Below, piece by piece: positions 7,270-39,650 of a DNA stretch of 64,000 bases. Both the position numbers and the translations under genes were made by a program. Source of the DNA: an uncultured Actinomycetota bacterium (lineage in GTDB: Bacteria; Actinomycetota; Thermoleophilia; RBG-16-64-13); the NCBI GenBank assembly GCA_963803925.1, contig CAWDOM010000013.1, positions 3,065-67,064 on the forward strand. The letters are read 5' to 3'. Within the stretch, counting starts at the first letter, position 1. Every line of letters starts with the position of its first letter. The notes beneath the pieces are model-generated. The model saw only the letters and a program-made list of their open reading frames with translations, had not been told where the DNA came from and did no database searches.

Positions 7270-7429
7270 GAGGCTGCAGAACAATGAAACCACGGCTCTC
7301 AGGACACGCTGGCCGGCACGACCGCGCGTCCTCGGTCGCGCAACTAGCGCTGCTGTCAGCGCTTTCTGCGTCCTTCTCTCTCGCGCGGCGATCGTGCCCG
7401 GAGCGCGAGGCGTCATTTTCCGCAGCCTC
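7270..7429 (+). repeat. 160-nt intercistronic element A, bounded by terminal inverted repeats (MITE-like or structured RNA)
   Basis: The left end is GAGGCTGCAGAACAATGA. The reverse complement of the right end is GAGGCTGCGGAAAATGA. The element starts right after the fabG TAG and is followed by TAG. It is homologous to element B at 28321-28480. Confidence 0.55.
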
Positions 7430-7441
7430 TAGCAGAAGGAG

Positions 7442-8716
7442 ATGTCGGTAGCTATGAGCGGTGCACCGAGGACAATCGAGCTGAAACGGGTGGTGGTCAC
7501 CGGTATCGGCGTCGTTTCGCCCATCGGTATCGGCAAGGAGGCCTTTCTCGAGGCGCTTCTCGCGGGCAAGTCGGGCGTCAGGAAAGTGGGACGTTTCGAC
7601 ACGACGGACTATCCGGTCAAGATCGCGGCCGATGTCAAGGATTTCGATCCGTTGACCTATATCGACAAGAAGTGGAGCAAGCGGATGGACCGCTACGCGC
7701 AGTATGGCGCGGGCGCCGCCCGGATTGCGCTCGAGGATTCGGGCTATCCGGTCGAAGAAGACCCGTTCGCCGTCGGGGCGCTCATCGGCTCGGGGGTCGG
7801 CGGCCTCGACACGTTCTATGAGCAGATCACTGTGCTTTTGGAAAAAGGCCCGGCGCGGGTGAGCCCGTTCTTCATACCCATGATGATTCCAAACATGGCT
7901 TCGGCCTGCGCTTCGATCATCTTGGGGCTGCAGGGGCCAGTCAGCGCGACGTGCACCGCCTGCGCCGCCGGCACAAATGCGCTGGGCGACGCTTTCAACA
8001 TCGTGCGCAGGGGTGAGGCGACGGCCATGCTGGCGGGCGGCGCCGAGGCGGCCGCCAACCAGGTGGGGCTGTCTGCCTTCGCGGCGCTGCGGGCGCTCTC
8101 CTCGCGCAACGACGACCCCGAGCGGGCAAGCCGGCCGTTCGACGCCGGCCGCGACGGGTTCGTCATCGGTGAGGGCGGGGGAGTGCTCGTCCTCGAGGAA
8201 CTGGAGCATGCTCTGGCCCGCGGGGCCCACATATACGCCGAGTTCGTAGGTTACGGCATGACCGGCGACGCCTCACATCTCACCGAGCCGGTCGAGACGG
8301 GCGAGCCCGCCGGGCTGGCCATCACCAAAGCGCTCCGCGATGCGCGCCTCGAGCCCACCGACGTCGACTACATCAACGCCCACGGCACGTCGACCCCACT
8401 CGGCGACGCCATGGAGACCAACGCGATCAAGCGCGCGCTTGGCGACCACGCCTACAAAGTGATGATAAGCTCCAACAAGAGCATGTTCGGGCACTGCCTG
8501 GGCGCCGCGGGGGCGCTCGAAGCGGCGGCTACGATCCTGTGCATGCAGGTGGGAATGGTGGCTCCTACTATCAATCAGGAGGAGCGTGATCCGGCATGCG
8601 ATCTGGACTATGTGCCGAATGTGGCCCGGAAGGCGGAAGTCAATGTCGCTGTGTCCAACAGCTTCGGGTTCGGTGGGCACAACGCCTCTATAGCATTGCG
8701 CAGGTGGCATGGCTAA
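7442..8716 (+). CDS. fabF: Beta-ketoacyl-ACP synthase II
   Basis: Active-site ATCTACAAG (Cys), HGTSTP and NSFGFGGHN are present. An AAGGAG Shine-Dalgarno (SD) sequence lies upstream. Confidence 0.9.
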   Translation: MSVAMSGAPRTIELKRVVVTGIGVVSPIGIGKEAFLEALLAGKSGVRKVGRFDTTDYPVKIAADVKDFDPLTYIDKKWSKRMDRYAQYGAGAARIALEDSGYPVEEDPFAVGALIGSGVGGLDTFYEQITVLLEKGPARVSPFFIPMMIPNMASACASIILGLQGPVSATCTACAAGTNALGDAFNIVRRGEATAMLAGGAEAAANQVGLSAFAALRALSSRNDDPERASRPFDAGRDGFVIGEGGGVLVLEELEHALARGAHIYAEFVGYGMTGDASHLTEPVETGEPAGLAITKALRDARLEPTDVDYINAHGTSTPLGDAMETNAIKRALGDHAYKVMISSNKSMFGHCLGAAGALEAAATILCMQVGMVAPTINQEERDPACDLDYVPNVARKAEVNVAVSNSFGFGGHNASIALRRWHG

Positions 8717-23421: not shown

Positions 23422-23465
23422 ATCATCCCTCCTTGTGGATCCCCATCGGGTGACGAAAGCAAAGA

Positions 23466-23477
23466 GCATTATTAGCA
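23466..23477 (-). promoter_or_regulatory. Second copy of the TGCTAATAATGC box, upstream of binding-protein gene 2
   Basis: The 12-mer is identical to the one at 22486-22497, and the downstream context is similar (TTTG[TC]TT). Confidence 0.4.
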
Positions 23478-23563
23478 CGCAAACGTATTGTGCGTCGCCC
23501 AGTGCGCCCCGCGGACGAGGCATCGTCTTTCCGCAGGCTCCTATAGGTATACTCCTTCATATA

Positions 23564-26955: not shown

Positions 26956-27141
26956 GCGGCCGCGGCGCTTGATTCTGGCGGTGGCGGTGGCGCCGGTCCT
27001 GCCGGTGCGGAGGCCGCGAGGCGATCTGCCAGCGCTCGGCGGCAAATCTGGTCGCGCTCGGGGCTCCTGGATACCTATTCAGTGTCATAACTAGCTATAA
27101 GCGTTCCGCGCGGGACCCTCAGGATGCTAAACTGCGTGACC

Positions 27142-28320
27142 ATGGAAGATTGGCATAGTCATCTATTGAGGGAGCGGATCGACCAGAGCAGTCTGGTCAT
27201 CCAGGGCAACCGGGCCAGCGCGCTTGGCGCGCTCGATGCCGGTGTGCGTTTCTTTGCCGGCTACCCCATCTCGCCCAGCTCCGAGATCATGGAGGCCATG
27301 GCGTACGAGCTGCCTCGCTCGGCTGGGGTCTTCGTGCAGATGGAAGATGAGATCGCATCGGTCATGGCCTGCGTCGGCGCGGCGCTGACCGGCGAGGTGG
27401 CCATGACCGCCACATCGGGCCCGGGCTTCTCGCTCATGCAAGAAGGCATCGGCTACGCGATCATGGTCGAAGCGCCGATCGTGATCGTCAATGTGATGCG
27501 CGTGGGGCCCTCCACTGGGCGGCCGACCGCGCCGTCGCAAGGCGACGTCATGCAGGCCCGCTGGGGCACCCACGGCGATCACCCGGCCATCGTGCTGGCA
27601 GCCTCCAACGTGGCCGACATGTATCGGCTGACGATGGCCGCCGTCCGCTTCGCCCAGCGATTCCGCACGCCCGTCATCCTGCTCGCCGACCAGCTCGTCG
27701 GCCAGATGCGCGAGAGCTTCTCGCCCGAACTGGTCGGCCGTTACCGTCTTACGAGCGGTGACTTCGATTTCTCGCCCGCATACATCAAGCCCGATGTCGC
27801 GCGCGAGGTGCGTTCGACCCACGTGCTGGGCGACGGCAACCATCCGCATGTCACCGGCTTGTACCATGACGAGACGGGCTTTCCGACCAACGATCCTGAG
27901 CAGAGCGATACGTTCCTCCGCGAGCTCTATAACAAGGTTGCCCACCATCGCAGCGAGCTCTGCCTCTACGACGTCAAGAACGAGGGCAAGGGCCGGGTGT
28001 GCATCGTGGCGTACGGGTCGTGCGCTCGCACCGCCCGGGCCGCCTGGAGACTGGCCGAAGAAGAGGGTCTGCCGGTCGAGGTCCTGCACCTCTACACGCT
28101 GTTCCCGCTGCCGGTCGAGATCGTCCAGCAGGTGGCGCGTCGCGTGGAGTTCATGCTCATCCCCGAACTGAACCTGGGCCAGTACGCGCACGAGGTGCGC
28201 AAGATGGCCGAGCAGTGGACCACCGTCATCGGCATGAACAAGATCGATGGCACGCTGTTCACTCCGCGTGAGATCCTCGACCGCATCGCCGAGCTCATCG
28301 GCAAGTACGAGAGCGTGTAG
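27142..28320 (+). CDS. korA: 2-oxoacid:ferredoxin oxidoreductase alpha subunit (copy 1)
   Basis: GNRASALGALDAGVRFFAGYPISPSSEI and ATSGPGFSLMQEGIGYA are present. It is ~85% identical by eye to copy 2. Confidence 0.85.
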   Translation: MEDWHSHLLRERIDQSSLVIQGNRASALGALDAGVRFFAGYPISPSSEIMEAMAYELPRSAGVFVQMEDEIASVMACVGAALTGEVAMTATSGPGFSLMQEGIGYAIMVEAPIVIVNVMRVGPSTGRPTAPSQGDVMQARWGTHGDHPAIVLAASNVADMYRLTMAAVRFAQRFRTPVILLADQLVGQMRESFSPELVGRYRLTSGDFDFSPAYIKPDVAREVRSTHVLGDGNHPHVTGLYHDETGFPTNDPEQSDTFLRELYNKVAHHRSELCLYDVKNEGKGRVCIVAYGSCARTARAAWRLAEEEGLPVEVLHLYTLFPLPVEIVQQVARRVEFMLIPELNLGQYAHEVRKMAEQWTTVIGMNKIDGTLFTPREILDRIAELIGKYESV

Positions 28321-28480
28321 GAGGCTGCTGACAAATGACGATTCGCCGTCAGAACGTGATAGGCATGCTCAAGACAAGGACGCAGGGAGCGTCAATAGCA
28401 GCGCTATTGGCGCGACTGCGGACGAAGTATTGTGCCGTCCAGCGCGTTCTGGCGGCCGAGGCTCCTTTGTCTGCAGCCTC
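28321..28480 (+). repeat. 160-nt intercistronic element B, bounded by terminal inverted repeats (MITE-like or structured RNA)
   Basis: The left end is GAGGCTGCTGACAAATGA. The reverse complement of the right end is GAGGCTGCAGACAAAGGA. The element starts right after the korA TAG. It is absent from the paralogous korA2-korB2 spacer. Confidence 0.55.
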
Positions 28481-28492
28481 GATAGGACAGCC

Positions 28493-29347
28493 ATGCCTCT
28501 AGCCATAGAGAAGTTCGTTCATACCGAACGGCTGCCCCACATCTGGTGCCCGGGCTGCGGCATCGGCAGTGTGGTGTCGGCGTTTCTCCGCGTCGCGGTG
28601 GATCTGGGTCTCGAGCGCGAGAATACCGTGGTCGTGAGCGGCATCGGCTGCTCCAGCCGCGCCTGCAACTACATCGACATGGGCACGGTGCACTCGATCC
28701 ACGGGCGCGCCCTCGCGGTGGCGACCGGCATCAAGATGGCTCGCCCCGATTTCAACGTAGTCGTCTTCACGGGCGACGGCGACGGTGCTGCCATCGGCGG
28801 CAATCACCTCATCCACGCCTGCAGGCGCAACATCGACCTCACCTGTGTACTGCTCAACAACCAGGTGTACGGCATGACCGGCGGCCAGCTCTCGCCGACC
28901 ATGGAGATCGGCGACAAGGCCACCACCGCCACTGACGGCAACGTCGAGCGGCCCTTCGATCTGTGCCGGTTGGTTGAGGCCGCCGGCGCGACCTTCGTAG
29001 CTCGTGGCACCGCCGCCAACATCCGCCAGACCGAGATGTTCATCAAGAAGGGCCTGCAACACCCAGGCTTCGCCTTCATCGAAGCCGTGGTCCCGTGCCC
29101 GACCGAGTACGGGCGCAGGCAAGGCATGAAGAACGTGGTCAAGATGCTCGACGACGAGAAAGAGCGCACAGTCACCAAGCTCAAGGCGTCGAAGATGACG
29201 CCCGACGAGCTGTCTGGCAAGATCGTCACCGGCATCCTTCACGAGGACAAGACGGTCCCCGAGTTCCAGCGAACGTATGCGGCGTCGGCACGCGCGTTGA
29301 CGCGAGCCGCGGCCGAGCAAGCCCCTATCCCCGAGGAAGAAAAGTGA
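28493..29347 (+). CDS. korB: 2-oxoacid:ferredoxin oxidoreductase beta subunit (TPP-binding, copy 1)
   Basis: WCPGCGIGSV, GIGCSSR and TGDGDGAAIGGNHLIHA are present. The start is set by alignment to copy 2 (MALEIERFLHTERLPH). Confidence 0.85.
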   Translation: MPLAIEKFVHTERLPHIWCPGCGIGSVVSAFLRVAVDLGLERENTVVVSGIGCSSRACNYIDMGTVHSIHGRALAVATGIKMARPDFNVVVFTGDGDGAAIGGNHLIHACRRNIDLTCVLLNNQVYGMTGGQLSPTMEIGDKATTATDGNVERPFDLCRLVEAAGATFVARGTAANIRQTEMFIKKGLQHPGFAFIEAVVPCPTEYGRRQGMKNVVKMLDDEKERTVTKLKASKMTPDELSGKIVTGILHEDKTVPEFQRTYAASARALTRAAAEQAPIPEEEK

Positions 29348-39595: not shown

Positions 39596-39650
39596 GGAGC
39601 GGGAGTGGCGACTGGGACCGGCCTGACGTCGCGACGCTAGGAGACACGGC

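Follow-up and report, generated by a model that had tools for sequence, protein, structure and literature searches.

In the 64,000-nt stretch of Thermoleophilia DNA analyzed here (the window), korA1 and korB1 are separated by a 160-nt imperfect palindrome, copy B, whose first base lies immediately 3′ of the korA1 TAG. Copy B is, with high probability, a fixed, non-autonomous and non-coding MITE, which was pasted into the TAG-containing end of korA1 by an IS5-family DDE transposase acting in trans, in the lineage of this genome and after the kor duplication. On this reading, the 172-nt kor1 spacer is a lineage-specific transposon scar, rather than a small gene or a regulatory innovation. The insertion of copy B is in itself ordinary, and the hairpin tip of the family to which it belongs is unusually conserved. 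The coordinates of all features are given in Table 1.

Table 1. Features of the window that bear on the korA1–korB1 spacer and its repeat element
Feature	Position	Strand	Remarks
korA1	27124–28320	+	2-oxoacid:ferredoxin oxidoreductase alpha-like; POR_N + PFOR_II
korA1 stop TAG, left copy of the TAG-containing target	28318–28320	+	orthologues GTGTAG-NNN-ATG
MITE copy B	28321–28480	+	160 nt; 85% identity to the family consensus of this genome
Left terminal inverted repeat of B	28321–28338	+	GAGGCTGCTGACAAATGA
Incidental 55-codon ORF through B	28335–28502	+	no match in Pfam; open frame not kept across the family
Hairpin apex of B, family core	28376–28424	+	AAGGACGCAGGGAGC-stem-AGC-stem-GCGACTG(C)GGACG
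Right terminal inverted repeat of B	28463–28480	-	reverse complement GAGGCTGCAGACAAAGGA; 2 mismatches vs left repeat
Right flank of B	28481–28492	+	GATAGGACAGCC, between the element and the korB1 ATG
korB1	28493–29347	+	beta-like; TPP_enzyme_C; start ATG 28493 fixed via orthologue alignment
MITE copy A	7270–7429	-	between fabG-like and fabF-like genes; 72.5% identity to consensus
Degenerate partial third copy	23449–23542	+	model positions 54–165, right half only; end ...CCGCAGGCTC-CTATAG
korA2–korB2 spacer	39596–39650	+	55 nt; unrelated to the element; invalid as empty site

The initial annotation had placed the start of the element directly after the korA1 stop codon and had recognized a terminal inverted repeat, and both points were borne out: the TAG occupies 28318–28320, the element fills 28321–28480, and its 18-nt inverted repeats differ at 2 of 18 positions. 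When the terminus was searched for elsewhere in the window at up to 3 mismatches, only copy A, at 7270, was detected, against a chance expectation of 0.03, and this level of similarity was reached in none of 100 shuffles. The arms of copy B pair at 78% over 36 nt, and with short flanks the + strand folds into a single hairpin of -93.6 kcal/mol (z = -6.1), compared with -69.8 kcal/mol for the reverse strand, indicating that the sense strand is the more stable one. Copy B is oriented with this sense strand on the + strand, as is kor1 transcription. Its apex carries CTGCGG in place of the CTGAGG of the family. A known structured RNA family was considered for the hairpin and rejected, as the Rfam 15 covariance models gave nothing better than chance with copy B or with a well-preserved copy from another Thermoleophilia MAG (L127). 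The right flank holds a second TAG (28483–28485), which forms an imperfect direct repeat of the target, and overlapping it an AGGA Shine–Dalgarno-like motif (28484–28487), which lies upstream of the korB1 ATG and just outside the hairpin.

Copy B had also been described as one copy of a repeat element, which agrees with the dispersed family detected in this genome and its relatives. BLAST and nhmmer profile searches of this genome's assembly (G000; 3.29 Mb, 14 contigs, 88% complete) gave 19 full-length and approximately 20 partial copies, and in 30 relatives the copy number ranged from 0 to more than 27. A 29-nt core pattern, searched with one genome per species, gave more than 120 matches, all in Thermoleophilia MAGs, which spanned Solirubrobacterales, Gaiellaceae, Thermoleophilaceae and Conexibacteraceae; the complete 4.7-Mb Thermoleophilia genome G031 contained at least 118 core matches. 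Copy A is oriented opposite to copy B, a point missed in the initial annotation. Beyond copy B, orthologous positions without the insert were identified for copy A and at least 8 further members of the family. With its 160-nt length (MITEs being shorter than about 300 bp), its terminal inverted repeats, its dispersed copies that differ in presence and absence between related genomes, its target-site duplications and its lack of a transposase or conserved coding capacity, the element has the characteristics of a prokaryotic MITE; for copy B itself the target duplication is imperfect only, TAG...(GA)TAG. RAYT-associated REP elements are described as palindromes of 20–40 bp that carry GTAG or CGTC as a tag on one side (PMC3733652), and copy B does not conform to them, being 160 nt long with other ends and a target duplication. 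No literature on MITEs or palindromic repeats in Thermoleophilia was found. The repeat family is previously undescribed, and its kind, the IS5-type MITE, is already known. Together with its transposase partner and its target rule, this defines a class-wide repeat family of soil Thermoleophilia.

The history of the insertion is recorded in the orthologues of kor1. Neither kor1 gene is disrupted, and the genome has a second kor operon. Congeners carry both kor paralogues, with KorA1 89% and KorA2 91% identical to their respective orthologues, and the kor1/kor2 duplication is therefore older than the genus. In the kor1 orthologues the junction reads GTGTAG-NNN-ATG, with a 3-nt spacer. Twelve further korA–korB junctions, of which congeners supplied 9 and metagenome contigs 3, were inspected among relatives of kor1 and kor2, and the element was absent from all of them; most had 3-nt spacers, and one metagenome contig had 26 nt before a GTG start. 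Compared with the 3-nt orthologue spacer, the 172-nt spacer of this genome has gained approximately 169 nt, with nothing replaced. The initial annotation had proposed that the element either inserted into one paralogue or replaced part of it after duplication; the insertion after duplication stands, and the replacement does not. As judged from these alignments, the insertion of copy B is confined to the lineage of this genome and postdates the kor duplication. The right flank GATAGGACAGCC is also missing from the kor1 orthologues, and its origin may lie in the insertion of the element.

The paralogous korA2–korB2 spacer had been put forward as a built-in empty-site control. That it is 55 nt long and lacks the element termini was confirmed (39596–39650); nevertheless, as an empty site it had to be rejected, because the duplication predates the genus, the spacer is variable in length (3, 14 and 55 nt), and its 3′ similarity is at chance level. 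The resemblance of its 3′ end to the sequence following copy B turned out to be a non-specific likeness of the Shine–Dalgarno-plus-ATG kind: TAGGACAGCCATG had 45 matches in the window at up to 3 edits. The true empty sites, on sequence comparison, are the kor1 orthologues rather than the paralogue, and it is these orthologues that form the proper control for kor1. The 55-nt kor2 spacer of this genome corresponds to 3 and 14 nt in two congeners and represents a separate expansion; its first bases, GGAGCG, are those of the 14-nt version, and a short inverted repeat, GCGAC...GTCGC, lies within it.

The termini of the family point to the enzyme that would have moved it. The terminus consensus, (C/G)AGGCTGCTGAAAAAGG, is identical at 16 of 16 positions to the end of an IS5-family IS. 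In G031, CAGGCTGCTGAAAAAG constitutes one end of a 1.43-kb IS (16/16), which is present in about 9 intact copies with the ends CAGGCTGCTGAAAAAG... and CAGGCCGCTGAAATAC... and with 4-bp target duplications of TTAA, CTAG or TTAG. A 1.35-kb IS with CTAG flanks and the ends CAGGGTGCTGAAAA was found on a congener contig (G003:C127); its transposase comprises DUF772 and DDE_Tnp_1 and scored 247 bits against the NCBIfam IS5 family model NF033581 (cut-off, 140). The G031 transposase is 65% identical to this G003 homologue, on which its assignment to the IS5 family rests. The target duplication of IS5 elements is Py-T-A-Pu, with CTAG the commonest (PMC5493358). Across the MITE family the flanks were likewise CTAG, TTAG or CTAA. 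Filled and empty sites were compared by flank-wise local alignments, since MAFFT handled the 160-nt gap badly; copy A, with the flanks ATAG[element]CTAG, and the copy at C4:85146, with CTAG[element]CTAG, corresponded to empty sites reading ATCTAG and ATCTAG-A, respectively, indicating a CTAG duplication in both cases. The family therefore has the termini of an IS5-family IS and a 4-bp YTAR target duplication, both of them marks of IS5-mobilized elements. The 16/16 identity of the termini is strong evidence for the presumed mobilization in trans by an IS5-family enzyme, which would recognize (C/G)AGGCTGCTGAAAAAG termini and duplicate a 4-bp YTAR-type target, usually CTAG.

Past the 16-nt end, the MITE and the IS have no sequence in common, and the MITE is thus not a simple deletion derivative of it. 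A Pfam search of the 88% complete G000 assembly yielded no IS5-type or DDE_Tnp_1 transposase, and a search of G000 for long elements bounded by the 11-nt terminus was too noisy. Conversely, BLAST detected no MITE copies in G003, the congener in which the first partner IS was found. The flanks of copy B do not form a clean duplication: they read GTGTAG-element-GATAG, the target GTAG is not YTAR, and the orthologues lack any equivalent of 4–7 nt of the right flank (GACAG).

Many members of the family share the position of copy B next to a stop codon. Sixty-six copies have co-directional neighbours, and 25 of these lie no more than 3 nt from the stop of the upstream gene. The stop codon beside an abutting copy was TAG in 37 cases, TAA in 8 and TGA in 11, so that TAG and TAA together made up 45 of 56, compared with 52% in the genome background (p = 1.3e-5). 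CTAG occurs only 0.62 times per kb in the genome, and at least 284 of its 2044 sites lie in stop-codon contexts. The rarity of CTAG and the sizeable share of it at stop codons would account for the many copies that start immediately behind a stop codon, and this target rule would likewise explain insertions drawn to stop codons in GC-rich genomes. The imperfect target GTAG and flank GATAGGACAGCC of copy B are accounted for only partly by this target preference. In long high-GC3 ORFs of G000, the stop codons were TAG (approximately 44%), TGA (48%) and TAA (8%); a TAG share of this size is high for a genome of 64.5% GC.

Individual copies appear to be free of selection. Private transitions in this genome gave 28 G.U and 22 A.C (p = 0.48), and there was no orientation bias relative to genes (32:34). 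Along the complete chromosome of G031, too, no orientation bias was seen, with 57 forward and 61 reverse sites intermixed; two smaller genomes had a faint two-domain orientation pattern based on 8–13 sites. Inserted copies such as copy B decay neutrally. In an alignment of 50 copies from several subfamilies, 38 of 51 pairs had compensatory changes, and G.U outnumbered A.C by 276 to 25; at a threshold of 5 or more cells there were 15 G.U pairs and no A.C pair. The sense strand folded better in all 50 copies (-102 vs -80.5 kcal/mol). Because the G.U bias is family-wide but private transitions are symmetric and orientation is unbiased, the constraint acts on source elements and not on inserted copies.

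The constraint is most evident at the hairpin tip. An apex of about 50 nt, AAGGACGCAGGGAGC-stem-AGC-stem-GCGACYGAGGACG, was near-invariant in the 50-copy alignment (A1; window core, 28376–28424) and across Thermoleophilia, including subfamilies with unrelated termini. Subfamilies that share the apex have termini of at least 3 unrelated kinds, such as CAGGCTGCTGAA, GAACTCGTTTCGGAATGAC and GAGGGTTTGGCGGAA. Within the apex, a direct repeat, AGGACGC, is present once on each arm around a covarying stem with an AGC loop. We tentatively suggest, as a less likely possibility, that the source elements are mobile single-stranded nucleic acids, either RNA or ssDNA, with a defined structure and a functional apex. 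Such an apex might serve to attract a factor of the host or of transposition; alternatively, it might itself be a small RNA that spreads via borrowed IS5-type ends. Of the features described here, only the invariant, strand-asymmetric apex of these source elements could open a way to new biology.

Following insertion, copy B has decayed neutrally, and a translationally coupled gene pair with a 3-nt spacer was split by a 172-nt spacer, presumably with loss of the former coupling. No promoter-like site, and no terminator-like site on the + strand, was found in or around copy B, and this makes it probable that transcription of the operon runs through the element in the orientation that folds more stably; the kor1 transcript would then presumably contain it as a stable hairpin. 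korB1 is probably now translated from the AGGA at 28484–28487, outside the hairpin. In sequencing runs, at most 9% of the words of the kor1 locus were found in any run (RNA runs: 0).

A loss of coupling is not the only conceivable outcome. Ribosomes that have terminated on korA1 might re-initiate within the element, melt the hairpin and stop at the korB1 start, so that coupling would be preserved. The end of the element, GAGG, joined to TAG creates AGGAGG, followed by an ATG 15 nt past the upstream stop, and relay-capable copies would then be those tolerated within operons. This geometry is present in both window copies, and in other stop-abutting copies the ORF opened by the ATG at +15 either terminates on the duplicated TAG/TAA or runs into the start of the next gene (C11:106202, ATGA; C14:3826, GTGA; L078, GTGA; L067, ATGA; L153, TGATG). 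Moreover, several subfamilies often carry GAATGA in their termini (30 of 51 copies). However, ORFs running through the element were not significantly enriched in the direction of the abutting upstream gene (12/33 vs 30/127 in other directions; Fisher p = 0.18), an NTG-A start provides an overlapping stop in one frame fairly often by chance, and the base of the hairpin sequesters the start signal. The frame used by copy B was open in only 4 of 17 copies of its own genome and 17 of 50 other copies (24–34%), and the copies decay neutrally. We therefore regard a translational relay as improbable.

Still less probable is that the host has selected the hairpin as a cis-regulatory RNA, which in the kor1 mRNA would set the korA1:korB1 ratio or stabilize the transcript, either by being processed by RNase III or by acting as a stem that shields the 3′ end, as has been reported for Correia and ERIC elements. 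Copy B does lie within an operon in the more stable sense orientation, and the Correia and ERIC precedents (PMC10969869) lend the idea some plausibility. On the other hand, no orientation bias relative to the flanking genes is seen in the family (32 copies point the same way and 34 the opposite way; among abutting copies, 22 vs 34), private mutations break pairs symmetrically, and the element is missing from every other korA–korB junction examined. A second kor operon also exists, and selection on kor1 may be relaxed for this reason.

A small-protein gene family, in which the 55-codon ORFs encode related peptides, is effectively refuted: the ORFs of copies A (7284–7451) and B have the same length and both have AGGAGG-N10-ATG, but they read opposite strands of the element, their frame is closed in most copies, intragenic copies are read in another frame, and Pfam gave no match. 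The AGGAGG-N10-ATG and the 55-codon ORF in both copies had been noted correctly in the initial annotation, with about 15 of 55 residues in common; the count is exactly 15 of 55, mostly encoded by the terminal repeats. As copies A and B are in opposite orientation, their ORFs read opposite element strands, so that likeness is expected at the terminal repeats only. No frame was open in every copy. The earlier preference for a repeat over a small gene family was thus well founded, and the 55-codon ORFs are incidental.

Several known systems resemble this family in part. IS5-family IS of the IS5 group (InsH-like), and MITEs with ends taken from such IS, share the (C/G)AGG.TGC.GAA terminal repeat and the 4-bp Py-T-A-Pu duplication; unlike a derivative of such an IS, however, the present MITE shares only the 16-nt end and has an unrelated, highly conserved hairpin core, which is also found with other termini. 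Mycobacterial interspersed repetitive units (MIRUs) in operons are reported by Supply et al. (1997) to carry short ORFs that overlap the stop and start of their neighbours, a geometry also seen for the ORFs of copies A and B. MIRUs differ in being 40–100-bp tandem units without terminal inverted repeats, and in the present family the ORF is not significantly enriched. Correia elements of Neisseria and ERIC elements of enterobacteria and Yersinia are also imperfect palindromes, present in tens to hundreds of copies and often located near gene ends within transcription units. They are about 130–160 bp long and duplicate TA rather than a 4-bp YTAR target. There is no sequence relation between them and the present family, and effects of RNase III or RNase E are documented for Correia and ERIC. 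Both form long mRNA hairpins and are inserted in both orientations (PMC10969869, PMC2229807).

Together with the Rickettsia palindromic elements (RPEs), Correia and ERIC elements can be regarded as functional analogues of the family (PMC10969869). As with RPEs, some copies of the family lie in frame within genes. In G000, copies are found inside long ORFs at C11:99668–99827 (Pif1/RecD-like helicase), C5:33396–33519 (central loop of an MFS transporter) and C7:131078–131237 (a further ORF); they add approximately 54 residues in one common element frame, and the orthologues lack the insert. In contrast to RPEs, such copies are a minority (11 of 173; 10 of the 11 have one orientation, that of the gene, and one frame in common), copy B is intergenic, and no conserved peptide function is implied. 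For the annotation of MAGs it is of use that copies of the family make spurious ORFs, lengthen genes in frame and sit on stop codons.

A related subfamily, which has the same apex and other arms, occurs in head-to-tail arrays in G000 (C10:150223–150637, C3:85150–85539 and C5:307622–307989), each with 2.1–2.4 units at a period of 174–176 nt and 97–99% identity. Similar adjacent copies were found at other Thermoleophilia loci (L145, L078 and L066). The well-preserved L127 copy (L127:5311–5530) lies a few bases from a tRNA gene, which was identified by an Rfam tRNA match clipped at the end of the searched stretch.
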